A stretch of DNA of 64,000 nucleotides from a virus (IMGVR_UViG_3300042934_001067:64001-128000); one strand, 5' to 3'; positions 1,237 through 39,625 are shown, counted from the stretch's first letter. Translations and numbers: made by a program. The notes: generated by a model not told the origin, from the letters alone.

Positions 1237-1266
1237 AGCCTAATGCACATCGATATGCATGGGGGC
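1237..1266 (-). promoter_or_regulatory. Promoter/operator cassette copy 1
   Basis: Minus strand: ATGCATATCGATGTGCAT immediately followed by -10 TAGGCT. Confidence 0.8.
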
Positions 1267-1290
1267 GGGAAGGGCCCAATCAAATCAAGT

Positions 1291-1369
1291 CAACGGAATC
1301 CGCACCCCTAGGGGCGAGCCACAACGGATATCGTGGCTCACCCCTAGCGGGTGCACAACGGAATCCGCA
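1291..1369. repeat. 14-bp direct repeats (CAACGGAATCCGCA) flanking an imperfect inverted repeat
   Basis: DR at 1291-1304 and 1356-1369; IR arms about 1302-1322 and 1333-1354. Confidence 0.7.
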
Positions 1370-1370
1370 G

Positions 1371-3077
1371 CTACGCCACCCGGTCACCCGCCGGGCGCAC
1401 CGTGATCATGGTCCCGTCGGTCAACGTCACCCGCAACGCCCCCCGCGCGTGCCGGTGCACCGTCTGCCCGGTGCTCAGAGCCTGGGCCACGAACACCGCC
1501 ACGGCCTCAGCCGCGATCACGTCACCCCCCGCACGCTCCACCCCGGCCGCCGTGGTGACGCTCGCCGACCACACGGCCACCTCGCCCGCCTCACTCATCG
1601 CCCGATCCACCACAGGGCGCAGCGCCTCAACCCGCTCACCCGACCGGTTACACCCCACCAGCGCCCACACGCCCCCCTGAGCAGCCCCCCGGCCCTCCTG
1701 CGGCTCCACGGCCACACGCGGCGCTGCGAGGCGCTCCACGCCCCCCTGAGACGCCTCCACGGACGGCACCCGCCCCCGCCGCGCATCGAACATCCGAAAG
1801 TACTGCTGCGCCCGCCACAACGCCTCAGCCGGACCATTCCCCGACGCCACATCCTCACGGGTGACACCCCCGTACTGCTGCCCCTCCTGGGGCTCCTCGG
1901 CCGCCACAGGCGCGCTCACGGGCTCCTCGGCCGCCTCCAGGTTGCTGGACGCCGACCAGAAGCACACGACCACACGGCCACCCTCCTCGGCCACCCACGC
2001 CACACGCCAATACGCGTTGTCCCACCCCAGCACACGCGCACCCCCCACCACGAGCCGCGCCCCACGCTCCACACGGTTCACCCGCACCGTGGCAGCAGCC
2101 ATCCCGTCCGCGTCGGCCACCTCCCGGGAAAACTCCCTCAGCGTGTCCACGCCCCCACCCTGCCGCTCCTCCTCCAGCACAGCAGCGCAGTACCCGCACA
2201 GGTGACCGCTCTCCGTCTCACGGTGAGGCAAGGAGTCATCCCCCACAGCGTCACAACGGATACACAGGGGCTCCAGATGCGGGGCACGCACGTCAACCGG
2301 AAGAGCATCGCCATGGCGCGCACCGTCCGGCACGAACGTCACCCGCTCCACCCCGTCCGCGTGAACGAACCGATCCGTGATCTTCCCCTTACCAGCCAGG
2401 CACCGCGCACGCACCCCCGGCACCGCCCACACCGCCGGACGCTCCTTCTCCTGCTGCGCCCCCTTGGCCGCGTCAGCAATGGCGCGCCCCATGCGCTTCA
2501 CGTCCCCCTCAGAGACCTGGAACACGTCACGGGCGATTCGCTCCCCCTGCTGCTCCCTGTCCAGCTTGGCCAGGTACGCCCGACCCCGGTCGTTGATCAC
2601 CAGGTACGACAACCACGGGCCCGCATCCGCCGTGTCCGCCATGTCCCGGCGCAGAATGCCGTCCTGAGTACGGTCGTTGTGGTCGACCATGGTCATGCGC
2701 CCCTTGGGATCGGCCGCGCCCTTGCGGAGCAGCTCCACCATGGCGGGCGTCGGCTTGCGGGTGATCTCGACCGCCGGGCGCTCCTCCTGCTGCTGCGCCT
2801 TGCGGGCCGCGCGCTTCTGGGCGTGCGCGGCAACGGCCTCACGCGTCCAGTGCTCGTCGCCCAGGCGGAAGTAAGCGATGCGGTTGCGGACGAACCCGTC
2901 GGCGGCGACGTACCCGGCGCGCTCCCGGTCCCAGCGCCACGCGCTCTTCAGCGCCTCCATACGGTCGAACGCTGCGCCGACCGTGTCAAAGGTCTCGAAC
3001 TGGGGGCCGTCGGCGTCGGGGGTGATGAAGAGCTGTTCACCCTGGGCGTTGTAGGCGCGGAGTTCGGTGCGGTCCAT
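1371..3077 (-). CDS. Mosaic hypothetical protein, 568 aa (wHTH-like module, CxxC pairs)
   Basis: ORF track; SD GAGGAG; QQEERPAV and AAEEP linkers. Confidence 0.8.
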   Translation of the reverse strand: MDRTELRAYNAQGEQLFITPDADGPQFETFDTVGAAFDRMEALKSAWRWDRERAGYVAADGFVRNRIAYFRLGDEHWTREAVAAHAQKRAARKAQQQEERPAVEITRKPTPAMVELLRKGAADPKGRMTMVDHNDRTQDGILRRDMADTADAGPWLSYLVINDRGRAYLAKLDREQQGERIARDVFQVSEGDVKRMGRAIADAAKGAQQEKERPAVWAVPGVRARCLAGKGKITDRFVHADGVERVTFVPDGARHGDALPVDVRAPHLEPLCIRCDAVGDDSLPHRETESGHLCGYCAAVLEEERQGGGVDTLREFSREVADADGMAAATVRVNRVERGARLVVGGARVLGWDNAYWRVAWVAEEGGRVVVCFWSASSNLEAAEEPVSAPVAAEEPQEGQQYGGVTREDVASGNGPAEALWRAQQYFRMFDARRGRVPSVEASQGGVERLAAPRVAVEPQEGRGAAQGGVWALVGCNRSGERVEALRPVVDRAMSEAGEVAVWSASVTTAAGVERAGGDVIAAEAVAVFVAQALSTGQTVHRHARGALRVTLTDGTMITVRPAGDRVA

Positions 3078-3121
3078 CGTGGCTCCTCGTTGCTGCTGCG
3101 TTCTTGGCGGGTACTCCCGCG

Positions 3122-3151
3122 ACCCTAATGCATATCGATGTGCATTGGAAG
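3122..3151 (-). promoter_or_regulatory. Promoter/operator cassette copy 2
   Basis: CTTCCA-ATGCACATCGATATGCAT-TAGGGT. Confidence 0.85.
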
Positions 3152-3478
3152 GCGAACGGCCAAGATCTCTCCCCCGGCCCCGCCCACGCCCCGTCGCTGC
3201 GCCCCGTCGGCCACCCCCTCACGCACGCACACGAGGCAGCGTGGGCCCGGCCCGCATTCGCACCCGTCCCCAGGGCAGTGAACCCGCCTTATATCTGTAC
3301 TAACCACTACATAAAGGCAGGGGCGGGATCACTGTCCCTGCCCCTGCCTCCACTGCTCCCTGCCCCTGGGCTCAGCCGTCCGTCGGCCCCCAGTGGTGCC
3401 CCGTGTAGACGTGCCCCGGGTACCCCTCCTCCACCCTCCTGATATGCCCCTGGTGCGTCGTCGCTCCGCACTTACAGC

Positions 3479-3967
3479 TCATGCCGCCCCCTTCCGTTCC
3501 GTCTCCGTCTCCACCACGCCCACCGACCACGTCAGCAGATACACCCTGAACGCCTCCCCACTGTCCACCGTGCGCGCCTCCAGGTTCGCCCGTGCGGCCC
3601 GCTCAATAGGCTCCAGGGGTTCCGGGAACGTCCAATACCCGTCGAACCTCTCAGCGTCCGGGAAGGGGCTGTAGCGGTTGGGCTTGCTCCACACGTTGGC
3701 GCGGCCCTCAGTGCTGTACGTGAACACCCACTCCTCCCCCTGGGGCGCGGGCGTGCTCTCGTCGGCCAGGATGCTCGTGCGCTCCACCCGGTACAGCGCG
3801 TGGCCGATACGGTTGTCGGTGTCGGCGCGCTCCGCGTCTTCCCGGGAGTCGTGGACAAACCTTGCGAGGGGCGCGTGCCTGCCGTCGTCCGTGAGCGTGA
3901 CCAGTCCCCATGCGGATGAGGGGGTGTCGGCCCACACGTACCGCGTCAGCGTCTCCCCGGTGCTCAC
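3479..3967 (-). CDS. Hypothetical protein
   Basis: GTG overlapping upstream TGA (GTGA coupling). Confidence 0.7.
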   Translation of the reverse strand: MSTGETLTRYVWADTPSSAWGLVTLTDDGRHAPLARFVHDSREDAERADTDNRIGHALYRVERTSILADESTPAPQGEEWVFTYSTEGRANVWSKPNRYSPFPDAERFDGYWTFPEPLEPIERAARANLEARTVDSGEAFRVYLLTWSVGVVETETERKGAA

Positions 3968-4734
3968 CACTCCCACGTTCCGAACACGGTCTTCCCGTTG
4001 ACGCTGATCTCCATGGGCACCGTGCGGTCAGCGTCCTTGCGCGCCTCCGGCCCCTCCACGTCCACGCCGCTCGTGTCCACCGACACGCGCAACGCCCCGT
4101 CCTTGCGGTAGGTGTAGACCTGCACCGTGCCGATCTCGACGCACGGGCGGGTGTTCTCGTCGTGGGGGTTCTGCGGGAGGAAACGCGCGTTGAGGCTGGC
4201 GGCCGTGTCGAAGTCGGCCCCTTCGGGGGCGTGGTCGCCGTAGCCGTCCCACGGGGCGGGCAGACACTCGACACCCCCGTTGGTCAGCGTCTCGTCCAGA
4301 CGCTTCCATGCGGCGGCGAACGCGCTTCCCTCGGGCAGCTCTCCCACGTGGGCGCGCAGCACACGCAAGAGGTCATCGGTCCCCATCTCGTCCAGGGGCG
4401 TGGCGTCCACGTCGTGGCGCTCGATGATCGCCTGCAAGTTGATTGCCTTGATCGCTGCGGCGATGTCGAAGTCACCGACCGCGTCCGTGTAGCCGGGGTC
4501 CGTGTGGTGCATCCCGATGAACTCGTTTCCGGAAAGGGCGATCCCCTCGGGAAGGGCGTCGTCGATGGCGGAGCGGTAGTCGGCGGCGATCCGGTCGAAC
4601 GCGCCCGACTCCTCCATACGCTCGTGCCAGTCGCGCGGCGCGCCGTTCACCGCGTCAGCAATGCTGGCCTCAATGGTGACGTTGTCGCGGTCGCCGTGGT
4701 TGTTCCACGAGCCGTATCCGGTGGTGATCTGCAT
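3964..4734 (-). CDS. Hypothetical protein (MQITTGYGSW...)
   Basis: ATG 4734 after CCCGCCGAGGAGACACACC. Confidence 0.8.
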   Translation of the reverse strand: MQITTGYGSWNNHGDRDNVTIEASIADAVNGAPRDWHERMEESGAFDRIAADYRSAIDDALPEGIALSGNEFIGMHHTDPGYTDAVGDFDIAAAIKAINLQAIIERHDVDATPLDEMGTDDLLRVLRAHVGELPEGSAFAAAWKRLDETLTNGGVECLPAPWDGYGDHAPEGADFDTAASLNARFLPQNPHDENTRPCVEIGTVQVYTYRKDGALRVSVDTSGVDVEGPEARKDADRTVPMEISVNGKTVFGTWEW

Positions 4735-4805: not shown

Positions 4806-5594
4806 CTACTGCCACTCGGCGGGGGCAAGCCGCCTCACGACGTTCAGCGGGTGCTCGCTCTTGTACTCGTCGCCGCTGTAGCCGATGGCGAACGGGCCCG
4901 TCGGCTCCACGATGTACACGTGGCCCCCGCTCTGGCGGGCGTAGGCGGCGGCGACGTCCAGGCGGGTGGTGAAGTGGACGTAGCGGCTCTTGGGCCCCTC
5001 GTCGCCCCACGGGTTGGTACGGCGCCCGGCGGTGAGCTGTGCACCCTCACGGAGCCGTCGGCCACCCCCGTGGTACAGCGGGCCCTCGACGGTGAATTCC
5101 CGCTCCACGTACCCGGTGTCCCTGTAGGTCTGCGCGGTGTAGGTGTACGTCGTGGGCGTGTCGGCGGGCTTGGGCGGCTCGATGGCGTCGGCGTCCCGGT
5201 GGGGCTTGTAGCCGCACTGCGGGCACCCGGCCCCCTGGCATTCCTGGCACCTCTTGGCGAGGATCTCTGCCACGTGCCCGGGGTCGGCGCGCTTGCGGTT
5301 CTTCAGGGAGTCCAGGTGGCCCCTGGCGGGCTTGGTGTACCGGCGCACGCTGCGCGACCCCCAGTCGGCGCGGCGCAGCACGGCCACGGTGCCCCTGGGG
5401 GTGTCGTCGTCGCACCACACGCGCACCGTCTTGGCGGTCACGGCGGTCACACGGCCGGTGCGCTCATAGATGCCACGCCCGCCGTAACCGGTCTCCCTGG
5501 TGAGGAATCGCAGGGTGTCACCCTCGGCGACGTCATCGAACGCCACGGCGTCCCACCCCTTCACGCGGGGATCGTCAGGACTGATGAGCGTCAC
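4806..5594 (-). CDS. Multi-module protein with C-terminal Arr-like ADP-ribosyltransferase domain
   Basis: GPLYHG...LTAG...N...VHFTT...A...VYIVEPTG...YKSEHPLNVV matches the motif order I recall for rifampin ADP-ribosyltransferase Arr. Confidence 0.7.
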   Translation of the reverse strand: MTLISPDDPRVKGWDAVAFDDVAEGDTLRFLTRETGYGGRGIYERTGRVTAVTAKTVRVWCDDDTPRGTVAVLRRADWGSRSVRRYTKPARGHLDSLKNRKRADPGHVAEILAKRCQECQGAGCPQCGYKPHRDADAIEPPKPADTPTTYTYTAQTYRDTGYVEREFTVEGPLYHGGGRRLREGAQLTAGRRTNPWGDEGPKSRYVHFTTRLDVAAAYARQSGGHVYIVEPTGPFAIGYSGDEYKSEHPLNVVRRLAPAEWQ

Positions 5595-6672: not shown

Positions 6673-8064
6673 CTAGAACGTCGTGGCGGCGGTGAACACC
6701 TGGGCGCGCTGCTCCTCGGTCCAGTCGCCCGTGAGCCGCACCATGGTGAGCGTCTCCTTGGCGCCGTCGTACGGGTCGGTGTAGGTGCCGGACAGCCACT
6801 CGTGCTCGCGCACGGTGTCACCGATGGGGCTCGCCGACGGCTCGGTAACGTCGGTCTTGCTGCGGATGTAGTCGGCGGCCCAGGCGACGGGGTCACCGTC
6901 GTGCGCCTCGATGTCGTCGGCGTCGGCGGTGATTTCCTCGGTGCTGGGCGTCTCCAGCTCCCGCACGTCCCCGTCCAGCGACAGGCAGTCGCCCGTGCAC
7001 TCGTGGTCATCCTCGCCCGCGTAGGCGCACTCCTCGGCCTCGGTGCTCACCACGCGGCGGGTGATCTCCAGGGTGTAGGCGGGCTCCTCGGCGGCCGGGG
7101 TCGGGGTGGCGGGCTTGCGGGTCTTCCGGGCGGGCTTGGCGGGGGCGCGGCGAACGGTGCCCCATTCCGTGGTGATGGCAGCCGTGTCGAGAATGGTGTC
7201 CGTGGTGCCGTCGGGGGCGGTCCACGTGCCATCGGTGAAGGGGAAACGGAGGCCGTTCAGGAACTCGTCGTAGTTGTTGCCGTGGCGCTCCATCACGCGC
7301 CCCTCGCCGGTGACGGTGAAGCGCACGGTGACCGTGCGGGCGGAGCCCGGTCCCTGTCCGATCGGCTCCATACCCATGAACCCGTACCGGGTCTTGGTAA
7401 GGGTGTAGCGGAAGCTGATGCGGTCGCCAGGGCGGACGTCGTGGACGTCAACGGTGTCGGTGTATCCGGCGGCTTCCTCGCGGGCGGTGTGGGCGGCGTG
7501 CTCGGCGCGGGCGGTGTCGGTGCTGGTGATGGACTGGCGGCACCAGCCGTGCGGGTCGGCGGCGGGCACGGCGGCCAGGGCGCGCATCACGGCGTCAGTG
7601 ATGCGGTCGCCGTTGTCGGCGCGGAAGTCCCGCACGGCGGTCTTCAGGGTGTCCGCGTCGGCGTTCCACGGCAGGGAGGGCAGGGCGGCGGCGATGACGT
7701 CGCGGGCGGCGCGGGCGGCCCGCATGGTCGGCAGGGAGTACAGGGTGACGCGAAGGGTGGACGGCTGCGCGATCACGTGCCACTCGCCGCGCTTGACCGG
7801 CTCCGCAAACAGGAACTTCCCGTTGTCGGCGGCCGGGGCGGGCGCGGGGGTCGGCTCCTCGGCCGGGGCGGTGGTGCCCGCGAGGCGGCGGGCGGTGGCC
7901 TTGCCGTCGGCGCTGAGCGTGTAGCCGTTGCCGTCGAAGGTGGCCAGACCCCGGGCGGCCAGGGCGCGGAGGGTGGTCGTGCGGGCGGTGATCATGTGGG
8001 CGTCGTTGGTCAGCGCCTCGGTGAGGGCGGCTTCCATGGTCTTGCTGATCTTTGCGTTCATCAC
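6673..8064 (-). CDS. Mosaic hypothetical protein, 463 aa, N-terminal wHTH-like module
   Basis: TLRALAARGLA...YTLSADGK; PAEEP linkers. Confidence 0.8.
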   Translation of the reverse strand: MMNAKISKTMEAALTEALTNDAHMITARTTTLRALAARGLATFDGNGYTLSADGKATARRLAGTTAPAEEPTPAPAPAADNGKFLFAEPVKRGEWHVIAQPSTLRVTLYSLPTMRAARAARDVIAAALPSLPWNADADTLKTAVRDFRADNGDRITDAVMRALAAVPAADPHGWCRQSITSTDTARAEHAAHTAREEAAGYTDTVDVHDVRPGDRISFRYTLTKTRYGFMGMEPIGQGPGSARTVTVRFTVTGEGRVMERHGNNYDEFLNGLRFPFTDGTWTAPDGTTDTILDTAAITTEWGTVRRAPAKPARKTRKPATPTPAAEEPAYTLEITRRVVSTEAEECAYAGEDDHECTGDCLSLDGDVRELETPSTEEITADADDIEAHDGDPVAWAADYIRSKTDVTEPSASPIGDTVREHEWLSGTYTDPYDGAKETLTMVRLTGDWTEEQRAQVFTAATTF

Positions 8065-8101
8065 ATGCTCCTGGCGGTCGTTCTCGGCGGGTACTCAGGC
8101 C

Positions 8102-8131
8102 AAGCTAATGCACATCGATATGCATTGTCTA
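8102..8131 (-). promoter_or_regulatory. Promoter/operator cassette copy 3
   Basis: TAGACA-ATGCATATCGATGTGCAT-TAGCTT. Confidence 0.9.
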
Positions 8132-8194
8132 GCGGGGTTCGGGAATCCGTCCCACGGGCGCCCGGCGGGCGGGGCCGGGCGCCCGTGGCGGGGA

Positions 8195-9379
8195 TCAGTC
8201 GGCGGGCATCGTGGTCTTCCACCCCTCGACGATGCGCACGCGGCGGCCGTACTTGCGGCGCAGCATGTCTCGCAGCGACGCGAGACCGGTACCGTAGCCG
8301 ATCGCGGGGGCGCCGTTCACGGCGTATTCGTAGGTCCAGCGCCACGCCGGGCCGGGGCGGGCGACTTCCGGGTACAGCCTGGAGCGCGTGATCAGAACGG
8401 CGGGCGTGCCGTCGGCGGCCGGGCCGGGCGGCGCCGGGCACGTTCCCGTGGAGTGCCGAGTGACCCACTCACCCTCGACGTGGACCCGCTCTCCCTTCTC
8501 GGCCGCCACCAGGACGCCGCAGCGCACACACTCCCCCTCGAACCTGTTCCCCTGGGCCGGGCGCCCCGCCTGCGGCTGCTGGGGCTCCTCGGCGGCCGGG
8601 CGCTCCTGGCACTCACCGGGCTTGTGCTGAACGGTCCAGCGGCCGTCAACACGCTCGCGCTCACCCTCGCCCGCTTCGACCAGGGCGCCGCAGTTGCGGC
8701 ACTCGCCCGCGTAGCGGTTGGCGGGGAGCGGCTTGGGTGCGGGGGCGGGCTTGGGCTCCTCGGCCTTGACCGGACGGGGCTTGCGCACGGGTGGGGCCGG
8801 GGGCTCCTCGCCTTCCAGCCATGCGCCCTTGTAACGGCGGGCGATCGCGCGGCGTGCTTCCTCACGGGCGGCCTGCGCCTCGGGGCCGCCGACGGCGTGA
8901 GCGCGAATCGTGTAGATGGTGTGGAACGCGCCTTTGGCCCAGTAGGCGGGGTGGTCGGACGACTCCGACGTCCAGGACTTGCCGTCCTCGAACGTGATCG
9001 CAGCGCGCACGCACGGAACGTCGACGTACTTGTCGTCCTCGACGCCGCGCCCGGTGAACTCCGTCACCTCCACCGTGGCCACCGTGCGCCATGCTGCCTT
9101 GTAGTCCCACGGCTTGTTGCCGCTCACTCCGCCGTGCGCCTGCGACATGATGCGCATGCCGGGCTTGATGTCCCGGACGGCCACGGTCGCGGCGGAGTCG
9201 GCGAGCGCCTTTTCGTACGCTTCGAACGCGGTGCGCCCCCGGCGGGAAAGGCGGACCTTCTTGCCGGAGCAGCTCCAGCACACGTTGCCGTCACGCTCGT
9301 TGTAGGAGTACCGGCCGGTACCGCCGCAACGGCCGCAGGGCTCTTCATCGAAATGGATCTTGACGATGGTTACGGTCAC
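8195..9379 (-). CDS. Mosaic Zn-finger protein (DnaJ-like CxxCGGTG; tandem NRYAGECxxCG repeats)
   Basis: GTG 9379 after GAGGAG; duplicated C-x2-C...H...C module. Confidence 0.8.
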   Translation of the reverse strand: MTVTIVKIHFDEEPCGRCGGTGRYSYNERDGNVCWSCSGKKVRLSRRGRTAFEAYEKALADSAATVAVRDIKPGMRIMSQAHGGVSGNKPWDYKAAWRTVATVEVTEFTGRGVEDDKYVDVPCVRAAITFEDGKSWTSESSDHPAYWAKGAFHTIYTIRAHAVGGPEAQAAREEARRAIARRYKGAWLEGEEPPAPPVRKPRPVKAEEPKPAPAPKPLPANRYAGECRNCGALVEAGEGERERVDGRWTVQHKPGECQERPAAEEPQQPQAGRPAQGNRFEGECVRCGVLVAAEKGERVHVEGEWVTRHSTGTCPAPPGPAADGTPAVLITRSRLYPEVARPGPAWRWTYEYAVNGAPAIGYGTGLASLRDMLRRKYGRRVRIVEGWKTTMPAD

Positions 9380-9417
9380 CGTGTGCTCCTCGTGCTGTCG
9401 TCCTCGGCGGGACCGCC

Positions 9418-9447
9418 AGACTAATGCATATGGATGTGCATTGAAAG
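9418..9447 (-). promoter_or_regulatory. Promoter/operator cassette copy 4
   Basis: CTTTCA-ATGCACATCCATATGCAT-TAGTCT. Confidence 0.85.
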
Positions 9448-9519
9448 CCTGTTGGGGAAGATCTTCGACGCACAGCACCCGGGGCGGGCCGACCGCTCCC
9501 GCCCCGGGTGCTGGCACCC

Positions 9520-11250
9520 CTACGCCACCAGGGACACGGTTACCGTTTCGCCGTCGTGGCGCAGCACCAGGGACTCATCACTGCGGGTGTAGCGGGCGCC
9601 CGCCCGCACCATGCCTGCCACCATGCCCACCACGTAATCGCGGTCCTCGGTGCTCACGCTGTTGTCCATCCCCCGCACCACCCGCACCGCGAGCCGGTCA
9701 CGGTGCGGCGTGACGTCGTCGGCGAGCGCCATGGCCGCACCCTCGGACGCGTTCAGGGTGCTCACGGGCGCGGGCGCGTCGGCGGGCTGCTGCGGCTCCT
9801 CGGCGGGGGCGGCGGCGCGGTCGGGCTTGCTGTCCTCGACCCAGTAGCCGTGCTCGGTACCGTCCGAACCGCACCCCTCGCACCCCTCGCCCTCACTGTC
9901 GATGATGTGGCGGCCCACCAGGACGTCAACGGCGTCACGCGCGTCCGACTCGTCGTCGTAGGAGTCGAACGCCCCCTCACGCTCAAAGCGGATCTTGTAG
10001 CGGTGGTTCGTGCATCCGTCGCTGTCGCCCTCGTGCTCCTCACACTCCTCGGCGCCACTCTCGTCGGCGGGCGCCGGGCGCCGTGGCACGTAGCGACGCT
10101 CGCACGTCTGGCCGTCGTGCGGGTCGGTGTCGCTCATGACGATCACGCCATCCGGGCCCTTGCGGAAGTCGAGTCCCTTGGCAATGCGCGACTTCAGCAC
10201 ACGGCACACCCATTCGGCGTCCCGGGTGTAGCGGGGCTCAGGCTCCCCGTTGCTGAACACGTCGTACCACTCCGCGTCAACGGCGTACGCGGCGCCGCCC
10301 TCGATGCTCTCGCCGGTGTTCGTGATGCGGTGCGCGCCCGACGGCATGCCCTTGTCGGTGGGGGTCTCCTCGGCGTCGTCGTCGGACAGCGCGGCGCCGC
10401 ACATGCTCAGCTCAGTGCACGCCTGCCCGGACTCGGCGCCGCACCCCTCGCACGGCTGCCTCTCGGCGGCCGGGCTCCCGTTCAGTTCTCCCAGGTAGGA
10501 AATTGTCACCTCGGGCTTCGGCGTGCGGTGCGTACGGCGCCAGTGCGCCGCAGCCTCACGCACGGCCTCCTCGCTGTCCGCTGCGAGGTACCTTTCACCG
10601 GCCGCGTAGCCGTAGTGCGCGGGCCACGTGGCATGCACCCAGTGGCCCGCGCCGCCCTCCTCGGCCCGCTGCAAGGCGCCGTCGATGGCCGCGTGAATGC
10701 GGGTTTGCTCCTGCGCCCAGCCGTTGGGGAAAATGGGGCGCTGCGGGACGAGCCAGATGGGGCACGGCTCGCCCGCGCCGTCGAAACCGGGGTCGGTGAC
10801 GCCCGCACCGTCGATCCGGATGAGACCGCTGTCCCCGACGGTAACGGCGAAACCCTTGCGACGGGCGGCGGCGATGCGGAGCCGGACCGACGCGGCGTTC
10901 TCGTCGCACAGCTTGCGGGCCCAGCCGAAACCGTTGGCACCCGTGTGGCAGGCGTACATAACCGACTCGACGTCGACCGCCGGGGGCTCCTCGGTCGGCT
11001 TCTCGCGGACCAGGGCGACCGCGTCGGCGGTGAGGTAGGTACGGGTGACGGTGCGCACCGGCTTCCCCGTCTCGTAGTCCCGGACGGTGACGACTTCCAC
11101 CCGCTCGGCCATGCTGCGCTTCTTCAGCGCCTCGACGGTGCGGGGGTTGGCGGAGCCGGGGCGGATCTCGTAGCGCCCCTCGTCGTCGGGACCGGCCTCG
11201 ACGGCGGCGCGGATGGTGCGGATCATCGGCTCACTGAGCTTTGCGGCCAT
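9520..11250 (-). CDS. Mosaic hypothetical protein (MAAKLSEP...), N-terminal wHTH-like module
   Basis: ATG 11250 after AAGGAG. Confidence 0.8.
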   Translation of the reverse strand: MAAKLSEPMIRTIRAAVEAGPDDEGRYEIRPGSANPRTVEALKKRSMAERVEVVTVRDYETGKPVRTVTRTYLTADAVALVREKPTEEPPAVDVESVMYACHTGANGFGWARKLCDENAASVRLRIAAARRKGFAVTVGDSGLIRIDGAGVTDPGFDGAGEPCPIWLVPQRPIFPNGWAQEQTRIHAAIDGALQRAEEGGAGHWVHATWPAHYGYAAGERYLAADSEEAVREAAAHWRRTHRTPKPEVTISYLGELNGSPAAERQPCEGCGAESGQACTELSMCGAALSDDDAEETPTDKGMPSGAHRITNTGESIEGGAAYAVDAEWYDVFSNGEPEPRYTRDAEWVCRVLKSRIAKGLDFRKGPDGVIVMSDTDPHDGQTCERRYVPRRPAPADESGAEECEEHEGDSDGCTNHRYKIRFEREGAFDSYDDESDARDAVDVLVGRHIIDSEGEGCEGCGSDGTEHGYWVEDSKPDRAAAPAEEPQQPADAPAPVSTLNASEGAAMALADDVTPHRDRLAVRVVRGMDNSVSTEDRDYVVGMVAGMVRAGARYTRSDESLVLRHDGETVTVSLVA

Positions 11251-11293: not shown

Positions 11294-11323
11294 AACGTAA
11301 TGCATATCGATGTGCATTGGAAG
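11294..11323 (-). promoter_or_regulatory. Promoter/operator cassette copy 5
   Basis: CTTCCA-ATGCACATCGATATGCAT-TACGTT. Confidence 0.85.
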
Positions 11324-11508
11324 TGATTCGCTGAAGAATCTTTCCGGGCATGCGAACGGGGCAGGAGCGGGCACGTAGCCCTGTCTCCTGCCCCGTTCTT
11401 CCCCGCCGTGGCTACCGTCTAGGCGCCCCCTCTCCTGTCGTGGCCGTCGACCCTAGTGCGGGCGCGTGGGCCGCTTCGGTCGACGCGGTCGGCGCGGGTG
11501 GCTCATGG

Positions 11509-11766
11509 TCACCTCCTCGGCGGGTGGAGGATGACGCCGGGCGCGTGGCCGGGCATCGGTCCGTCGTCGGGGTTGGGCGCCTGCTCGCACTCGGTGCCGT
11601 TGCGTCCCACGGTCCAGGCGTCGCCGTCGGCGGCCAGCTCCATGGCGTCGCCGCAGTGCTGGCACACGCTCCGCTTCGGGTAGCCGTCGGGGTCGGGCTC
11701 CGGCGGCGCCGGGGCGGGGCCCTGCACGGTGGGCAGTGCGGACGGGGGCGGGATGAACGGAATCAT
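11509..11766 (-). CDS. Small Cys/His protein (MIPFIPPP...)
   Basis: GAGGAGG before ATG 11766. Confidence 0.65.
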   Translation of the reverse strand: MIPFIPPPSALPTVQGPAPAPPEPDPDGYPKRSVCQHCGDAMELAADGDAWTVGRNGTECEQAPNPDDGPMPGHAPGVILHPPRR

Positions 11767-11788: not shown

Positions 11789-12793
11789 TCAGTGCAGGAC
11801 CAGGCTGCGCATTCCGTAGCCGCGCAGGGGATAGCGGTCCTCGAACAGCTCGGACGTGTGGTCGCATCCGGGGCAGGAGTCGCGGCCGGTGCCGTAGTCA
11901 TGGGCGCACCGCGTGCCGTACAGGGCGCGCGCCATGGCCTTGACGGCGACGTCTGCGCGGTGCCCGGTCCAGACGGCGGGGTCGGGGGGCGTGATCCATC
12001 CGGCGTCCGGGGCGGGCGTGACGGTGACGCGGTAACGGCCGTTGTCGTCGAGGTCGAGGCGGACGTCACGGCTGAAGTGGTGGAAGATCCACGCGACCGG
12101 CGGCCGGTACTCATCCCGGGGGCCGTCGGCCTCGATCACGGCCAGGCGGAACGGGGCTCCGGGGGTCTGGTCGCACAGGTCGGCCCAGACGGCGTCAGCG
12201 TGCCCCAGAGCGTTCACCGCGTCGTGGTCGAGGGGGAACGGCGTGCCAGGGGTGGTGTGTTCAGGCTCGGGCGCCCAGGACGGCCGGAACTCCGGCGCGA
12301 AGTAGATGCGGGCGCCGTCCTGCTCGGCGTAGCCGCCCAGCTTGCTGAACACCTGGAACGGGATGTTGACCCAGGTCGAACCCGTGTGGTTGGCGTCGTG
12401 GAACTGCTTGGGCGAGGTGTGCGGAAGGCGAACCCGCTCGATGTACGGGCGCCCCATGAGGGTGACGCCTGCGATCCAGCCGGACGCCTTACCCTGGGCT
12501 CGTCCGGCCAGGCTGAGGATGATTTTCAGGTACTCATCCGGGATGATCAGCCGCTCACGCTCGCGGAGCGCCTCGGCGGCGGCGCGGCCGTCCTCGGTCA
12601 GGAAGTAGTGTCCGCGCTCCTCGTCGGCCGTGGCCAGGCCCTGAGCGACCAGCCGCGCGCCGTCGGGGGCGTGCACGTTGCCGCTCTTGACCTCAAGGGC
12701 GGCCAGAAGGGCCGAGTCCTCCAGGGCGTCAGCGTCCGTGAACGGCGGCTCCATCTCGGCGTCGGTCGGCGCCTGAGCGTCGGTGGTGTCCAT
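11789..12793 (-). CDS. Hypothetical protein, 334 aa, wHTH-like module
   Basis: ORF track; codon bias. Confidence 0.75.
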   Translation of the reverse strand: MDTTDAQAPTDAEMEPPFTDADALEDSALLAALEVKSGNVHAPDGARLVAQGLATADEERGHYFLTEDGRAAAEALRERERLIIPDEYLKIILSLAGRAQGKASGWIAGVTLMGRPYIERVRLPHTSPKQFHDANHTGSTWVNIPFQVFSKLGGYAEQDGARIYFAPEFRPSWAPEPEHTTPGTPFPLDHDAVNALGHADAVWADLCDQTPGAPFRLAVIEADGPRDEYRPPVAWIFHHFSRDVRLDLDDNGRYRVTVTPAPDAGWITPPDPAVWTGHRADVAVKAMARALYGTRCAHDYGTGRDSCPGCDHTSELFEDRYPLRGYGMRSLVLH

Positions 12794-12904: not shown

Positions 12905-13651
12905 CTACTCGGCGAGCAGCTCGGCGCGGACGTACGCCCAGTTGATCGCGTCGAAGCCTTCGGAGGCGTCGCGGCCGTCGGCGGCCTCGCTCAAACTGTC
13001 CCGAATCAGGGCGATGGTGTGGCGGTCGTCGGCCGAACGGTGGGCGCGGGGGCCGAAGACCACCGGGCGGAGGTGGTCGCGCAACTCGTCCTCACCGGCG
13101 CGCGCAGCGTTGCGGGCGTCCTCAATGAACGTTCCGTCGTTGGTGATCCACACGGCAACCGAGTGCGTGGCGAAGTTCTGGCCGTCGTACGGGCCGCCCT
13201 CGACGCGGCGCGGCGTAGCGGCCTGGTGGCGGTTGGCCAGGCGGAAGGCGGCGCGACGGACCTCAATGGGGAGGGACTCGTCGTTGATCTTGGCCCTGTT
13301 GGCCTCGACCTTTTCAGGGGTGGAGAGAATCGGCCGCTCGACGCACAGCAGGTCACCGCACCGGAGCAGGTCCGTGGAGCCGTCGGCGTAGAACACCTCG
13401 GCCGTGCCGGGGTCGGCGTCCTTGGCCCACTCAACGCGGATGATGTCCTTGAACTTGTCCAGGTGGCCGTGAGCGTCCTGGCCCCGTCCGCTCTCGGGCT
13501 TGCGGGCAGTACCGGCCGCAGTGCGGGTGATCATGTGGGGGATCCTGTCGGCGTCCACGCCCTTGAGGCCGTCGATACGCAGGTGTCCGGGGGCGGTGTT
13601 GCCGCTGGCGGCAACGGCCTCGGCGGGGGTCAGGTAGTCGAAGATGCTCAC
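12905..13651 (-). CDS. Hypothetical protein (VSIFDYLTP...)
   Basis: GTG 13651 after GAGGAG. Confidence 0.75.
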   Translation of the reverse strand: MSIFDYLTPAEAVAASGNTAPGHLRIDGLKGVDADRIPHMITRTAAGTARKPESGRGQDAHGHLDKFKDIIRVEWAKDADPGTAEVFYADGSTDLLRCGDLLCVERPILSTPEKVEANRAKINDESLPIEVRRAAFRLANRHQAATPRRVEGGPYDGQNFATHSVAVWITNDGTFIEDARNAARAGEDELRDHLRPVVFGPRAHRSADDRHTIALIRDSLSEAADGRDASEGFDAINWAYVRAELLAE

Positions 13652-13752: not shown

Positions 13753-14379
13753 TCAGTCGTCGTGGTCGGCCATGGCGTACTCGTCGAAGCGGTCGGCGCC
13801 GAACAGCGTGCGCAGGCCCTCGGCCATCTTCACGTTTTCGCTGTAGGTCTCGCGGGGCATCCAGTTGGCGGGGTCCGTGGCGAAGTCGCTCGCCCAGTCC
13901 TCGAAGTTGTCGGCGTAGTAGGCGGTCGCCGACTGGCGGACCAGCATGCCCACGGTCTCGACCAGCTCCGGCGCGTCGCCCTCCTCGCCGCCGTGCTTGA
14001 CGGTCTGGGTGTAGGTGCGGCCGTCGTAGGCAAGCGTGACGCGGTACTCGCGGTGCACCCAGCCCTCGGCGTCGGCGCCCATGGCGATCAGCTCGGAGGT
14101 AAGGGTGACACCGTCGCGGCGCAGCAGCAGGGACAGGGGGAGGTCGGAAACCTTGCCGCCGATCTGACCGTCGGCCGGGTACTGCTCGCGGGTCCACTCG
14201 TCGCAGGCGGCCTCGAACGCCTCCTGGGTGCGCTCGATGGCGGGTCCCTGGGTCCTGCCGTCGTCGCTGATGTGCCAGACGTTGACGACCGCGCCGGTGT
14301 TGGTGCTGATGTACTCGCCGCCGTCCCAGGTGAAGGTGAGGCCGGTGCGGTACTGCGGGGTGTAGATGAAGGCGGGCAT
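13753..14379 (-). CDS. Hypothetical protein
   Basis: SD GAGGAG; ORF track. Confidence 0.8.
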   Translation of the reverse strand: MPAFIYTPQYRTGLTFTWDGGEYISTNTGAVVNVWHISDDGRTQGPAIERTQEAFEAACDEWTREQYPADGQIGGKVSDLPLSLLLRRDGVTLTSELIAMGADAEGWVHREYRVTLAYDGRTYTQTVKHGGEEGDAPELVETVGMLVRQSATAYYADNFEDWASDFATDPANWMPRETYSENVKMAEGLRTLFGADRFDEYAMADHDD

Positions 14380-14421: not shown

Positions 14422-14451
14422 AATCTAATGCATATCGATGTGCATTGTCTA
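14422..14451 (-). promoter_or_regulatory. Promoter/operator cassette copy 6
   Basis: TAGACA-ATGCACATCGATATGCAT-TAGATT. Confidence 0.9.
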
Positions 14452-14514
14452 GCCGGTTCCGGGATCCCTTCCCGGACGGGCGCGCCCCAGCCGTCGGGGC
14501 GCGCCCAGGGTGGC

Positions 14515-15861
14515 CTACTGGGGCCGGTCGTGCTTGCGGAACTTGTAGGCGGAGGTGACGGAAATCCTCTGGCCGCACTCGGGGCAGGTGCCGCGCTTGC
14601 TGTACAGGCGGCGCTCGCCCTCCGTCATGTGCTTGTACGCGTCCGTGCGCGAGCCGGGGCACTCCGTCTCCGGCGCCTGCCGCTCGGTCCATTCCGTGGG
14701 CGCGTCGGGGTAGCACTTCGTGCACATGATTGCCTCGGTGCCCGCCGTGGCGTCCCTGATCACCCGCTGGTACGCCTCGCGCCATTCCATGCCGGAGACC
14801 TCGGGAAGCCAGCGCAGTGGCGTACTGGGGCCGATGCTCGGGCAGTTACGGCCGGTGTGAACGTGCCCGCCGTCGGACAGGCACAGGTGCATACGCGACC
14901 AGCCGCCCCGGCGGCGGAACTCGCCGTCGAGGATGGCGAGGGGGCCGTCCATGACGATGCGCAGTTCCATGCGCAGGGAGTCGAGGAGACGGACGGCCGC
15001 GCGGAGCTGCTTCGTGTAGGCCCCGGGCGCCGTGAGCCCCTCGCGCACACGGGTCATCTTGTCGGGGAGGTAGCCACTGGCCAGGTGCTCGCGGGCGGTG
15101 CGCTCGGCCTTGTCGAACGACGTTGGCCAAACCTGACGATAGCCTCGGCCGTACCGCTCTCTCGTCTTGCGCCAGAGGAGCGCGCGATACACGCCGTCGG
15201 TGGCCTTCTCTGTCTCGGCGGCGAGCCGGGACAGTTCGTCGGCAAGGACGGCGTTGTACCGGTCGACCTCGACCGCCGTGAGGTTCGTGAGCTGCTCGGG
15301 CCGGACAGCAAGCGTTTCGGCGAGGGTGGGCACGACGGCCGGGGCGGGCTGCCCGGGCGGCAGGATGCGGAAGCTGTGACCGTCCTCGGAGGTGAGGATC
15401 TCACCATTGGTCATGGCCTCCATGCTGGCCTTCATGATGTCGTAGTGGCCGCCGAGCCCGTGCCTTCCCAGGATGGACGACGCGAAGTACTCCGCCTGAT
15501 GGCCCGTCGTGGCCTCGTCGACGGTGGCCCCGTGGCCGACGGTGACCCAGTCGAGACCCTGGGGCGGGCGGACCTGAGCACGGTAGTCGGTGGCCGGGGC
15601 CTCGACACCCAGGCGGCTCCTGCGCTCCTCGGGGACGAGGGCCATCAGGGTCGTCTTCTTCGTGCGGCGCTCGTACTCCTCGCCCGTCCTGGTGTTCACC
15701 TCGTAGATCTTGAGGAACTTTGGCGACGCGTTTTCAATCTTCACGATCTGGTAGACGCGGCCGTAGTTGTACATGAGCTGATCGCCGGGCTTCAGGTCCT
15801 TGGCCGGGACGGCCGGGACCCGGCCGACGGCCTGGAGGTGGATCGTCTGGGACTCCTGCAT
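14515..15861 (-). CDS. Actinophage-type Cys/His-rich hypothetical protein, 448 aa
   Basis: GHVH...C...WLPEVSG...CTKCYPDAP...CPGS...CPECG. Confidence 0.8.
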   Translation of the reverse strand: MQESQTIHLQAVGRVPAVPAKDLKPGDQLMYNYGRVYQIVKIENASPKFLKIYEVNTRTGEEYERRTKKTTLMALVPEERRSRLGVEAPATDYRAQVRPPQGLDWVTVGHGATVDEATTGHQAEYFASSILGRHGLGGHYDIMKASMEAMTNGEILTSEDGHSFRILPPGQPAPAVVPTLAETLAVRPEQLTNLTAVEVDRYNAVLADELSRLAAETEKATDGVYRALLWRKTRERYGRGYRQVWPTSFDKAERTAREHLASGYLPDKMTRVREGLTAPGAYTKQLRAAVRLLDSLRMELRIVMDGPLAILDGEFRRRGGWSRMHLCLSDGGHVHTGRNCPSIGPSTPLRWLPEVSGMEWREAYQRVIRDATAGTEAIMCTKCYPDAPTEWTERQAPETECPGSRTDAYKHMTEGERRLYSKRGTCPECGQRISVTSAYKFRKHDRPQ

Positions 15862-15896: not shown

Positions 15897-15926
15897 AACC
15901 TAATGCACATGGATATGCATTGTCTA
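15897..15926 (-). promoter_or_regulatory. Promoter/operator cassette copy 7
   Basis: TAGACA-ATGCATATCCATGTGCAT-TAGGTT. Confidence 0.9.
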
Positions 15927-15979
15927 GCCGGTGAGTGAAGGCGACGGCGCCGCCCCGGGGAAGGGACGGCGCCGGGCGG

Positions 15980-23096: not shown

Positions 23097-23121
23097 GCCG
23101 AGGAGAACCGAAAGGAACACC

Positions 23122-23319
23122 ATGGAGTACACCGACTTCCACAAGTCAAGTGCAAGCGGCTCGGGCGAGAACTGCGTCTATCAGGGTGTCGCCCGCGACG
23201 CCGACGGCGCCGTTGCCAAGGTCGGCTTCTACGACAGCAAGCAGGAGGAGGGCCAGCGCGTCATCGTCGGCGTCGCCCCGGCCGCCTGGACCGCGTTCGT
23301 GGACAGCGTCCGCGCCTGA
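23122..23319 (+). CDS. DUF397 protein
   Basis: FHKSSAS...NCV...DSK...AWTAFV. Confidence 0.9.
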   Translation: MEYTDFHKSSASGSGENCVYQGVARDADGAVAKVGFYDSKQEEGQRVIVGVAPAAWTAFVDSVRA

Positions 23320-27851: not shown

Positions 27852-28255
27852 CCACCGACGCGCCACCGTTCGAGGTGCTGCCGAAGCAGACGTACGTGCC
27901 GTGCAAGACGGACTACCTCTGGGGGGAGACGGTCCACAAGCCCTTCGTCGTGTGGGTCGTGGACGGCGACCGGGTCAAGGTCTGGGATCCGACCGGCGGT
28001 CAGCGTATGGGCGGCTTCCGGTGGATCGCGCGCCGCAACCTGCACGAGAGCGGCACCACCGCACGGGGCAAGGAGCGACGGACCGGCTTCCGCCTGCGCT
28101 GCGGGCCGCCGACGTCGAAGGACCAGGAGCTGTGCGGCTCCTGCTTCCGCTGGGTCGACCCCGAGGGGATGGCCGTGTCGGCCTGGACGCTCGGGCACAG
28201 CACCTGCAAGCCGTGCAAGGCCGAGATCGACGAGAGGTACGGGACACTGTCGTGA
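27848..28255 (+). CDS. Hypothetical protein with CxxC pairs
   Basis: GTGA coupling. Confidence 0.7.
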   Translation: MTTDAPPFEVLPKQTYVPCKTDYLWGETVHKPFVVWVVDGDRVKVWDPTGGQRMGGFRWIARRNLHESGTTARGKERRTGFRLRCGPPTSKDQELCGSCFRWVDPEGMAVSAWTLGHSTCKPCKAEIDERYGTLS

Positions 28256-37141: not shown

Positions 37142-37567
37142 ATGCGCACGCGGCCTCGGGGAGGGGTCTACAGGTCCGCCAAGGGGTGGGAGCGGCATGC
37201 GGAGTTGGTGCAGTCACGCCGCTTGTGTGTGAGCGGGAAGATCACGTTCATCGCGAGGTCCGACGCGGAGGAGTTCGTCGCCTCGGACCGGGGTGAGCAC
37301 GACGCGCAGCGGATCTACGACTGCTCTCTGTGCGGCTGGATGCACACGACGTCGGGCGGGGGCAGCCAGAGGTACTTCGACCCCCGGGCGAAGCGAGTGA
37401 ACAAGAGCCGCTTGTACGCCTCGAAGCAGCTGCCTCGCCTCGGTCAGTGCCGGGTGGTCGCACAGAGCGTGAAGCAGGGGTGGATCGAGTTCGAGGACGG
37501 CAACGGCCGGATTCGACGGTGGTCCACGGTGGGCTGGAGACGGCTGATGCGGCCGTATGAGCCCTAG
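37142..37567 (+). CDS. Phage-type Zn-binding protein
   Basis: CVSGK...RIYDCSLCGWMHTTS; SD GGAGGAG. Confidence 0.7.
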   Translation: MRTRPRGGVYRSAKGWERHAELVQSRRLCVSGKITFIARSDAEEFVASDRGEHDAQRIYDCSLCGWMHTTSGGGSQRYFDPRAKRVNKSRLYASKQLPRLGQCRVVAQSVKQGWIEFEDGNGRIRRWSTVGWRRLMRPYEP

Positions 37568-37620
37568 ATGCTTCAATGTCCTCGCGCGGGCCGGGGAGGC
37601 CTGGCAGAAGGGCGGGGACG

Positions 37621-37971
37621 ATGCGCAGGGCGGGGCTGGCCGTGGTGGCCGCCGTGGTGGTGCTGGTGTCGGGGTGCGGGGGCTCCGACGACGGCGGCGG
37701 GGAGAGCAGCTCGGTGCCGTACGGGGCGCGGACGTGTTCGGACTGGTCCGGTCGGATGGACGACACGGAGCGGTGGGACGCGGCCGAGGAGCTGCTGGTG
37801 AACGCGAAGGGCACGGACGGCGCCGAGGGGGACCGGGCGCCGTCGGCGAGCACGCTGAAGCAGTTCTCGTCCGACCTGGACACGCTGTGCGGGCGGAGGG
37901 CGGGGGACGAGATGCTGGCGCCGCTCGCGGACGAGCTGTACACGCTGAACCGGGCGTACTACAGCATCTGA
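37621..37971 (+). CDS. Lipoprotein
   Basis: MRRAGLAVVAAVVVLVSGC lipobox. Confidence 0.75.
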   Translation: MRRAGLAVVAAVVVLVSGCGGSDDGGGESSSVPYGARTCSDWSGRMDDTERWDAAEELLVNAKGTDGAEGDRAPSASTLKQFSSDLDTLCGRRAGDEMLAPLADELYTLNRAYYSI

Positions 37972-38039
37972 GACTGCAGAAGGGCCCCGGTGAGCCGTCA
38001 CGCTCGGCCGGGGCCCTGCTGTGTTGAGCCTATCGGGCG

Positions 38040-38999
38040 TCAGGGGGCGACGGGGGCCTTCTTCAGGCGGGAGATGTAGCTGGGGTCGACGCCGAGGAGG
38101 GCGGCGAGGAAGACGTTGGTGACCTTGATGTCGCGGGCGTCGGCTTCCTGCTCGACGAGGGTGACGTAGTCGCGGGCCTGGTCGGAGGGGCGGCCCTCGG
38201 CGGGGGCAGGCGGCAGGGCGGCGAGGAGGTCCATCATCTCGTCCGAGGGGACCTTGTCGCGGGTGGACTGGCGGGTGAGGACGACGTCGAAGGCGGCCTG
38301 CTTCTGGGCGTCCTGCTGCCGGGCGGCGTCCTCGGGCTCGTCGGCCGGGGTGTCGAGGAGGACGCGCTGCCAGGCGAGGGGGACGTCCTTGCCCTTGTCC
38401 TGTCGCTTGGCGGCCTCGTGGCGGATGACGGTCTCCTGGGGGACCTCCCACAGCTTGGTGCGGCGCCAGACCTTGAAGGTGCTGAGGGGGGCGAGGAGCC
38501 ACCAGGTCAGGCGGATGGCCGGGAGGGGTGCGGGGCGCAGGCCGTCGGCGATCTGCTGGTCGCGCTTGGCGGCCTTGGCGTCGCGGAGGCGGCCTCGGAG
38601 CATCATTTCGTGGCCGAGGATCCAGACGGCCGGGGGCAGGGCGTGGAAGGCGACCGCCAGGGGGTCGGGCCAGGCGGCGCGGAGCTGGAGGGCGAAGGTG
38701 GCCAGGGAGAAGACGGCGACGATGGTGCGGATGATGCGGGCGGATCGGCCTGCCTTGACCTCGCGGACGGCCTTGCGGGAGTAGAGGAGGATGGCGAGGT
38801 CGGCCAGTGCGGCGACGACGATGGCCTGGTCCTCGGGGAAGCCGACGCGCAGGGCCTGGGTGTAGAGGGTCTGGTAGCCGACGTAGAAGCCGCCGAGGGC
38901 GAGGAGGTAGATGCCACCGTCGGTGAGGGTCTTGTCCCAGTCGGTGGCGGCGATTCTGGCCTTGGTCGTGTCGGTCCAGGTACGCTTGTCAGCAGTCAT
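38040..38999 (-). CDS. DUF2637-like membrane protein with C-terminal HTH
   Basis: 4 TM segments, HALPP motif, LAALLGVDPSYISRLK. Confidence 0.7.
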   Translation of the reverse strand: MTADKRTWTDTTKARIAATDWDKTLTDGGIYLLALGGFYVGYQTLYTQALRVGFPEDQAIVVAALADLAILLYSRKAVREVKAGRSARIIRTIVAVFSLATFALQLRAAWPDPLAVAFHALPPAVWILGHEMMLRGRLRDAKAAKRDQQIADGLRPAPLPAIRLTWWLLAPLSTFKVWRRTKLWEVPQETVIRHEAAKRQDKGKDVPLAWQRVLLDTPADEPEDAARQQDAQKQAAFDVVLTRQSTRDKVPSDEMMDLLAALPPAPAEGRPSDQARDYVTLVEQEADARDIKVTNVFLAALLGVDPSYISRLKKAPVAP

Positions 39000-39102
39000 C
39001 GAATCTCGGTCTTCCTCGGCGGGATGATTGTGCGGAGATGGCGTTCAGCGTCCCTGGCTGGGATCCGGGCAAGGAGTTCCAGTCGGGGGCGCTTTTGTGT
39101 GC

Positions 39103-39561
39103 TCAGGCGCCCATGACCTCGCTGCAGGCGAGGGCGTGGAGGGCGGGGTACTGCTCCTCGCGCTGCTCCATCAGCTTGTTGATGGTCCAGGAGGTGGCGT
39201 GGAGGGAGGCGAGGATGGCCTGGAGGTTCTCGGGCGAGAGGTACTCGGGGAGTTCCTGGGGGACGACGCCGCCGATGCTGCGCTTGCGCTTGCCCCTGGC
39301 TGCGACGGTGATGCCGCGCCGGTCCTTGAGGTACATGTAGAGGCTGGAGCGGTAGGTCATCGGCCTGCCCTGGGCGTGGAGGATGTCTCCGGTGGCCTGC
39401 CTTTCGGCGAGGGCGAGTTCGCTGCCGTCCAGGGTGAGTTCCGTGATCTGCTCGCCGAGGGCCTTGAGGGCGTTGTTGATCTCAGCGAGCTGCCCCAGTG
39501 CACCCATGGCGGGAGTGTTCTCCGGGACGGGTGACTGCAGGGCGGCGGTGTTCTCGGACAT
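39103..39561 (-). CDS. Hypothetical protein (MSENTAAL...)
   Basis: CCGCCGAGGAG before ATG 39561. Confidence 0.75.
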   Translation of the reverse strand: MSENTAALQSPVPENTPAMGALGQLAEINNALKALGEQITELTLDGSELALAERQATGDILHAQGRPMTYRSSLYMYLKDRRGITVAARGKRKRSIGGVVPQELPEYLSPENLQAILASLHATSWTINKLMEQREEQYPALHALACSEVMGA

Positions 39562-39595
39562 GAGATCTCCTCGGCGGCGGTAACGGGAGACCCCC

Positions 39596-39625
39596 ACCCT
39601 AATGCACATGGGTATGCATTGCAAG
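39596..39625 (-). promoter_or_regulatory. Promoter/operator cassette copy 8
   Basis: CTTGCA-ATGCATACCCATGTGCAT-TAGGGT. Confidence 0.8.

Follow-up and report, generated by a model that had tools for sequence, protein, structure and literature searches.

The lambdoid phages (lambda, 434, P22) rely on a repressor and Cro whose palindromic operators overlap promoters and form two tripartite clusters at one immunity region. The C1 operators of P1 are asymmetric 17-mers bound by a monomer; the conserved inverted repeats (CIRs) of phiC31 lie near, and are not known to lie inside, the spacers of early promoters that are not HrdB-like; and the Cluster A stoperators, the sites of L5 gp71, are 13-bp, asymmetric and orientation-dependent sequences that lie mostly inside transcribed regions and stop elongation. 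Here, we describe an 18-bp palindrome that recurs eight times in a 64,000-nt stretch of virus DNA (IMGVR_UViG_3300042934_001067:64001-128000, the whole of which we call the window), each time filling the spacer between the -35 and -10 hexamers of a promoter-like cassette. To judge from its sequence context, this palindrome is probably the operator of a dimeric helix-turn-helix (HTH) repressor that is encoded by the element itself and acts by promoter occlusion.

By sequence, the cassette system belongs to none of the lambdoid, P1 C1, phiC31 CIR, KorA/KorB or CUP systems, and its layout also differs: a single dyad in the spacer of many separately terminated units. As in heteroimmune lambdoid phages, palindromic operators overlap host-sigma promoters, and specificity differs between relatives while the architecture is kept; as in the 434 operator (ACAA-N6-TTGT), half-sites lie one helical turn apart. 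Unlike in the lambdoid phages, the operators here are dispersed singly, 9-17 to an element, each filling a promoter spacer ahead of its own terminator-bounded unit. The proposed control of many scattered promoters and operons by one repressor, through a repeated operator in a phage that lives as a plasmid, recalls P1, but the operator is here a perfect dyad and the hosts and genes are unrelated. The Streptomyces temperate phage phiC31 likewise has many inverted-repeat copies (about 17 bp, intergenic, in the early region and repressor-bound), which however share no sequence similarity with ours, and the Cluster A mycobacteriophages are also actinobacteriophages with tens of genome-wide copies of one repressor site, although our dyads lie inside promoters. 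The RK2 KorA/KorB operators and the IncN CUP/ArdK system offer a further parallel, a repeated palindrome through which one or two element-encoded repressors silence a set of strong promoters, with expression on entry into a new cell; unlike in RK2 and IncN, no KorB/ParB-type regulator is linked to the cassettes, and the partition proteins swap between relatives in a way that the operator type does not. The comparison with CUP-controlled plasmid genes made in a preliminary description of this DNA is thus apt as a concept and fails in sequence, where conservation covers about 30 nt and a 9-nt leader motif and not a long repeat of over 100 bp. The mechanism that we propose is conventional; the phage-plasmid family is undescribed.

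The window comprises bases 64001-128000 of a 156,276-bp virus genome of 69% G+C (G000). The virus record is collinear with pRLB1-9.1, a 154-kb circular plasmid of Streptomyces sp. RLB1-9 that codes for an HK97-fold capsid protein, baseplate proteins, ParA, DnaE and DnaB. This collinearity and these genes identify the element as a phage-plasmid, and on that basis the window is part of a 156-kb Streptomyces phage-plasmid. The family is distant kin of the cluster C mycobacteriophages, with whose RecA/UvsX-like proteins that of the element shares 31-34% identity. We compared G000 with 10 relatives: six of full length (150-157 kb), namely pRLB1-9.1, G001 (Streptomyces sp. MH60), G002 (an IMG/VR record), G003 (a plasmid of Streptomyces sp. 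cg35), G004 (Streptomyces sp. A0642) and G005 (Streptomyces sp. NPDC021080); three partial viral contigs (G006, G007 and G008); and one 3-kb metagenome contig. A homologue search brought up at least seven further contigs in the 150-158 kb range, whose sources are Streptomyces albidoflavus, S. griseus and several NPDC strains. The papers on strain RLB1-9 neither describe its plasmid as a phage nor mention the promoter cassettes.

A pattern search placed the palindrome ATGCAYAYSSRTRTGCAT (IUPAC) at window positions 1243, 3128, 8108, 9424, 11300, 14428, 15903 and 39602; 100 dinucleotide-preserving shuffles gave no match, for a chance expectation of 0. A whole-genome search added a ninth copy, with one mismatch, at genome position 58499 (window -5501), 5.5 kb ahead of the window's first base. 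On the minus strand, every cassette reads as a -35 hexamer, the palindrome and a TANNNT -10 hexamer, with the palindrome abutting both hexamers. The preliminary description had given eight such cassettes, and these are confirmed in all their details: the palindrome begins six bases inside each cassette, because the -10 hexamer comes first on the plus strand; the eight -10 hexamers read as listed; the spacer is exactly 18 bp; and the -35 is TAGACA in three window copies and CTTNCA in four, the copy at 1243 being without a match. Also as described, the asymmetric core takes each orientation in four copies while all promoters point the same way. Every copy joins one ATGCAT half to one ATGCAC half, in the two arrangements four times each, and an asymmetric position pair that occurs in both orientations is what one would expect of a site for a symmetric homodimer. 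Among the palindrome's 18 columns, 14 are invariant, a far better conservation than that of the -35 hexamer or of the inner part of the -10, and an alignment of 121-nt stretches showed no conservation outside the 30-nt core other than a short leader motif, CCCGCC(A/G)AG. This combination, a palindrome conserved beyond its hexamers between unconserved flanks, argues for a constraint that exceeds promoter function or recent duplication.

The flanking hexamers and the downstream sequence look like those of promoters. The -10 begins with TA and ends in T in 9/9 G000 copies and in all forward-reading cassettes listed for the relatives. The G000 -35 is TAGACA at 18 bp in 4/9 copies, a weak CTTNCA in 4/9 and missing in 1/9, while most copies in pRLB1-9.1, G006 and G008 have TTGACA or TAGACA. 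At 34-44 nt past each window -10 there is a start codon, itself preceded by a ribosome site of the GGAG type, and GGAG-type ribosome sites or leaders stand downstream of the listed cassettes in all but one G003 copy. A scan for E. coli-consensus promoters and terminators was uninformative at 70% G+C. Upstream, seven of the eight window cassettes have a strong, perfect GC-rich hairpin with a 10-18 bp stem at a distance of 10-40 nt (fold z-scores against shuffles of -1.9 to -7.8); for the remaining one, the upstream region is too GC-rich for a hairpin to be judged. Such terminator-like hairpins suggest that each cassette begins its own transcription unit, at a predicted start site just past its -10.

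All eight cassettes, their hairpins and the genes that they would drive are on the minus strand. Cassette 1 (1237-1266; -10 TAGGCT at 1237-1242, palindrome 1243-1260, no recognisable -35) precedes a gene whose start is at 1197 and whose end lies beyond the window, and a perfect GC-rich terminator-like hairpin lies just upstream (1300-1354, z -7.8). Cassette 2 (3122-3151; TAGGGT, palindrome 3128-3145, -35 CTTCCA) would drive 1371-3077 (568 aa). Cassette 3 (8102-8131; TAGCTT, palindrome 8108-8125, TAGACA) heads 6673-8064 (463 aa) and the next six genes down to 3479, and a hairpin with a 15-bp stem (8152-8188, z -4.9) separates it from the stop of 8195-9385. That gene (396 aa, with a zinc-ribbon N-terminus) follows cassette 4 (9418-9447; TAGTCT, palindrome 9424-9441, CTTTCA), upstream of which a hairpin (9473-9519, z -4.0) sits directly past the stop of 9520-11250. 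The latter gene (576 aa) would be read from cassette 5 (11294-11323; TACGTT, palindrome 11300-11317, CTTCCA; upstream hairpin 11354-11398, z -4.4). Cassette 6 (14422-14451; TAGATT, palindrome 14428-14445, TAGACA) serves 13753-14379 (208 aa) and probably also 12905-13651, 11789-12793 and 11509-11766; two adjacent hairpins (14458-14507, z -3.1) lie upstream of it and past the stop of 14515-15861. This last gene (448 aa, phrog_2433) belongs to cassette 7 (15897-15926; TAGGTT, palindrome 15903-15920, TAGACA; upstream hairpin 15945-15974, z -1.9). The isolated cassette 8 (39596-39625; TAGGGT, palindrome 39602-39619, CTTGCA), with a 10-bp-stem hairpin upstream (39635-39657, z -4.5), would drive 39103-39561 (152 aa) and the DUF2637 gene 38040-38999.

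Strong support for an operator comes from the relatives, whose syntenic regions share a common cassette (upstream terminator hairpin, -35, spacer palindrome, TANNNT, usually a G-run, a floating CCCGCC, ribosome site and start codon) and differ in the palindrome itself. The 11 records, G000 included, fall into at least four clear types and an aberrant one. Type A, the palindrome of G000, occurs in nine copies each in G000 and G001; type B, GGCAAC-N4-GTTGCC, in pRLB1-9.1 (17 copies, with no type-A copy), G007 and G008; type C, GCGCACT-N4-AGTRCGC, in G003 (10), G004 (11) and G005 (about 15); and type E, CGCATC-N4-GATGCG, in G006 (at least nine). In the aberrant type D, found in G002 (six copies), a -10-proximal GTGCAC half-site alone is in place. 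Types A, B, C and E have GCA-N8-TGC invariant at an equal distance from the -10 and differ mainly in the base preceding GCA and the base after it; spacers across the elements are 17-19 bp, mostly 18. The isolated cassette ahead of the 152-aa/DUF2637 operon makes the swap explicit: it is orthologous in seven elements and can be aligned gap-free across the promoter, where GCA, TGC, the -10 and the G-run do not vary and the type positions do, so that orthologous genes are preceded by different operators in different elements. The preliminary description had read the cassettes as housekeeping-sigma promoters (HrdB-type) under one dimeric DNA-binding protein; they do look so, and that part of it is strengthened by the replacement of the palindrome in relatives that keep the cassette.

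Several further features of the cassettes vary or persist across the family. The CCCGCC(A/G)AG leader motif (for example at window 8076-8091 and 3096-3111) is kept in every operator type and genome, floating at 6-17 nt past the -10, with 19-34 nt between it and the start codon. It is complementary to the G-run past the -10, which makes a 5'-terminal hairpin or a second binding site possible. The cassettes of G002, the most distant relative (record coordinates 76004-87931), have GTGCAC beside the -10, CTTGCGYATAC, and a second GTGnAn 22-24 nt upstream, with intervening arms that vary between copies in a compensatory-looking fashion. Lastly, six of the 17 cassettes of pRLB1-9.1 (64845, 68968 and 104046-114298) are outside the syntenic block and head small-gene operons, so the size of the regulon is itself variable.

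The palindromes are confined to the element. Type C followed by TA has 32 occurrences, every one of them on the phage-plasmid contig (for three, a symmetric site is read in reverse), and none elsewhere in three host genomes of 8-10 Mb each, complete or draft; type A has just chance matches with two mismatches in those genomes. This bears on the view that a host-encoded regulator binds the palindromes, by which the element would plug its genes into a host regulon. That no element-encoded regulator has been pinned down would fit such an arrangement, but a site restricted to the phage-plasmid contig (type C), or present in the host genomes only by chance (type A), is not what a host regulon would leave, and the operator type differs between the closely related G000 and pRLB1-9.1. 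We thus consider host control very unlikely. An element-encoded homodimer is the better fit because the dyad is better conserved than the hexamers, sits exactly between them, has its asymmetric position in both orientations, gives way in sister elements to a different dyad with an unchanged scaffold and is missing from the host chromosome.

If the palindrome is such an operator, how would the regulon work? RNA polymerase with the host principal sigma factor (HrdB-type) would read each cassette promoter, and the 18-bp stretch between -35 and -10 would be the operator. A dimeric HTH protein encoded by the phage-plasmid would bind the palindrome, whose half-site cores lie one helical turn apart (GCA-N8-TGC); this is the half-site spacing of XRE/Cro/CI-type HTH dimers. 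Bound protein would block RNA polymerase and so turn off nine terminator-insulated units together, either in the plasmid-prophage state, as a CI-type repressor does, or as an early shut-off in lytic growth, in the manner of a Cro-type repressor. In cells without the repressor, host polymerase would fire all units with no need of a phage factor. Operator and cognate repressor would have changed specificity several times among the sister elements, giving rise to regulatory, and probably immunity, groups.

The sign of regulation is the part of this scheme for which an alternative must be weighed. As the palindrome fills the spacer of promoters that otherwise seem competent for the host principal sigma factor, repression by occlusion is the likeliest action. 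The palindrome could instead bind an activator, either a MerR-like protein that realigns the -35 and -10 from the spacer or a factor that replaces a missing -35 contact. A perfect dyad indeed occupies the whole -35/-10 spacer in MerR-family promoters (merT, soxS, tipA), the -35 is weak or missing in 5/9 G000 copies, and some pRLB1-9.1 and G006 copies have 19-bp spacers. However, most spacers here are 17-18 bp, against 19-20 bp in MerR-type promoters, and copies that combine TAGACA or TTGACA with TAGNNT should work unaided. Neither was a MerR-family protein found: the MerR-family domain PF13411 was unmatched at E<=1 in six-frame searches of G000, G001, G002 and pRLB1-9.1, and HTH_17 matches in G000, G001 and pRLB1-9.1 were merely sub-threshold. 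Activation therefore seems to us unlikely.

Three observations weigh against a repressor-operator system as we propose it. The -35 hexamers are poor in 4/9 G000 copies and absent in 1/9, which would also fit the less likely activating role; G002 keeps only the -10-proximal half-site at the canonical place; and among six HTH proteins examined, no protein of the element covaries convincingly with operator type. The last point rests on a simple expectation: G000 and G001 should have one and the same regulator, the three type-C elements should agree in theirs, and the types should differ from one another, the lineages being otherwise about equidistant. Two candidates had been put forward in the preliminary description, and neither behaves in this way. 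The 92-aa protein encoded at 36808-37086 (minus strand) is a genuine HTH protein of the XRE family, but G001, with its nine identical type-A operators, has no homologue, and the gene has a different palindrome of its own upstream (about 37093-37127). The 204-aa protein with two XRE-type HTH motifs (56992-57606, minus strand) has recognition helices that are nearly identical across operator types, to the point that type-E G006 has the type-A helix.

The 92-aa XRE gene merits a remark of its own. It starts directly past its nested palindrome (37093-37127), which has outer arms ATAACGAC/GTCGTTAT and inner arms CGGTAT/ATACCG, and stands back to back with a plus-strand gene, 37142-37567. Gene and palindrome together look like a self-contained local switch or antitoxin.

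Other candidate proteins were set aside on similar grounds. The HTH of a sigma-region-4-like 128-aa protein (50718-51104) is invariant in all operator types; a 400-aa winged-helix protein (G000 140612-141814), which may be a replication initiator, has no type pattern; and the recognition helix of the EspR-like repressor that is paired with an ImmA-like protease (G000 30372-31552) is not conserved within type C. In the 174-aa protein p174 (G000 50464-50988, outside the window), which contains an HTH-looking stretch, the putative recognition helix varies within type C; p174 has four type-specific columns within 25 residues and no Pfam match over threshold, with one sub-threshold match to DUF7569. 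As regulators, the 152-aa protein of the isolated cassette, a 365-aa protein (17162-18259), the 348-aa product of a divergent gene (18457-19503) and a PnuC-like membrane protein are not supported either.

The best of the weak candidates appears to be a WhiJ-like protein. It belongs to a triad resembling abaA/whiJ/bldB (21445-23319, both strands), in which a HATPase_c_2 protein (21445-22008, minus strand; Pfam E 6.4e-11) is followed on the plus strand by the WhiJ-like XRE and DUF5753 protein (22230-23096; HTH_31 2.8e-13, DUF5753 1e-38) and a DUF397 protein (23074-23319; 2.2e-9). Within the repressor model, we tentatively suggest that the WhiJ-like protein could be the repressor, modulated by its BldB-like (DUF397) and AbaA-like (HATPase_c_2) partners. 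In all nine elements that cover that region (six full-length, three partial), the triad lies in synteny next to the regulon, and four positions in and just past the recognition helix do not vary within an operator type and differ between types. G002 shares K-P-T residues with type A, as it shares the TGCAC half-site; the stretch that codes for the HTH is among the seven DNA segments that type-C elements alone conserve; and XRE dimers fit the half-site spacing.

Against this candidate, it does not stand out in a strict covariation count that took in 74 conserved proteins: its score of 3 in the best 25-residue window is exceeded by four proteins without a plausible regulator role, namely DnaE (6), a tail protein (5), p174 (4) and a J-domain protein (4). 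Within a type, two positions of the helix are not constant, the 3-kb metagenome contig combines a type-B-like helix with a type-C/E-like palindrome, and the region upstream of the WhiJ-like gene is without the type palindrome. Homologues in other viral and metagenome contigs have no such cassettes, except in that 3-kb contig, which speaks mildly against the WhiJ-like protein. It also counts against the candidate that the only characterised WhiJ binds direct repeats beside its own gene (PMC10294661). A bolder reading, which we regard as doubtful, is that Streptomyces phage-plasmids of about 150 kb have turned a developmental-type WhiJ/BldB/AbaA module into a lysogeny switch, with a WhiJ-like repressor in the spacer of 9-17 host-type promoters and at least four mutually orthogonal repressor/operator sets on GCA-N8-TGC that would define immunity groups.

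What the cassettes would drive, in the preliminary description a conjectured immediate-early or anti-defence regulon, is mostly a set of large (150-580 aa), apparently cytoplasmic orphans, with no match of known function in Pfam or PHROGs and no PADLOC match. The product of 8195-9385 has an Anti-TRAP-like zinc ribbon and a marginal match to phrog_4265, and 4806-5564 (minus strand) encodes a C-terminal Arr-like (rifampin ADP-ribosyltransferase) domain (Pfam E 7e-7), which in a regulon gene recalls the ADP-ribosylating early proteins of T4. Two genes match PHROG families of unknown function, 14515-15861 (phrog_2433 and phrog_15500) and 13753-14379 (phrog_4273). Several large regulon proteins (1371-3077, 6673-8064 and 9520-11250, minus strand) seem to contain a winged-helix unit that is small and MarR/DUF3489-like: in the 568-aa protein, residues 104-188 resemble one by their structure neighbours in the ESM Atlas, at low TM-scores, and two other large regulon proteins have N-termini like 'K-L/I-S-x-x-M'.

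No part of the genome varies more than these genes, even between G000 and G001, the two closest elements, and this raises a last alternative: that the cassettes are mainly recombination linkers for the exchange of units between co-infecting relatives, with protein binding secondary. Many units between the cassettes of G000 and G001 are indeed missing or only N-terminally similar, and the same sequence of about 30 nt bounds each unit. However, linkers have no need of dyad symmetry, of an exact placement between -35 and -10 or of a scaffold common to all types, and where the palindrome type changes, it does so across a whole element, which speaks for a cognate binding protein. We find it highly improbable that linkage is their main role; a linker effect can, however, go together with operator function.

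The ParA/partner pair of G000 (2248-4034, outside the window) is 79%/72% identical to that of G005, while its ParA is just 41% identical to that of G001, otherwise the closest relative, in which the ParA partner has no detectable homologue. This pattern indicates that the exchange of partition modules is independent of operator type. A variable region with genes on both strands separates the regulon from the isolated cassette (window 28252-29834, 31612-32532 and 33898-34848), among them genes for an RNase H, a tyrosine recombinase, a JmjC/cupin protein and a second integrase-like gene; the equivalent region of pRLB1-9.1 has an ATP-grasp pair for a ribosomally synthesised and post-translationally modified peptide (RiPP).

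If the repressor-operator reading is correct, our findings would map, for the first time, regulation in an undescribed family of large Streptomyces phage-plasmids, marking one class of host-read promoters and the hypervariable orphan genes that are fired from it. They would also predict immunity groups among the elements and provide a clean natural case of repressor/operator specificity co-evolving on a fixed scaffold. Since the cassettes form a series that is alike except for the operator, they could, once the repressor is found, yield orthogonal and tightly repressible HrdB-type promoters for Streptomyces synthetic biology. Should the WhiJ-like lysogeny switch also prove true, the family would hold a ready-made set of orthogonal switches for Streptomyces engineering.

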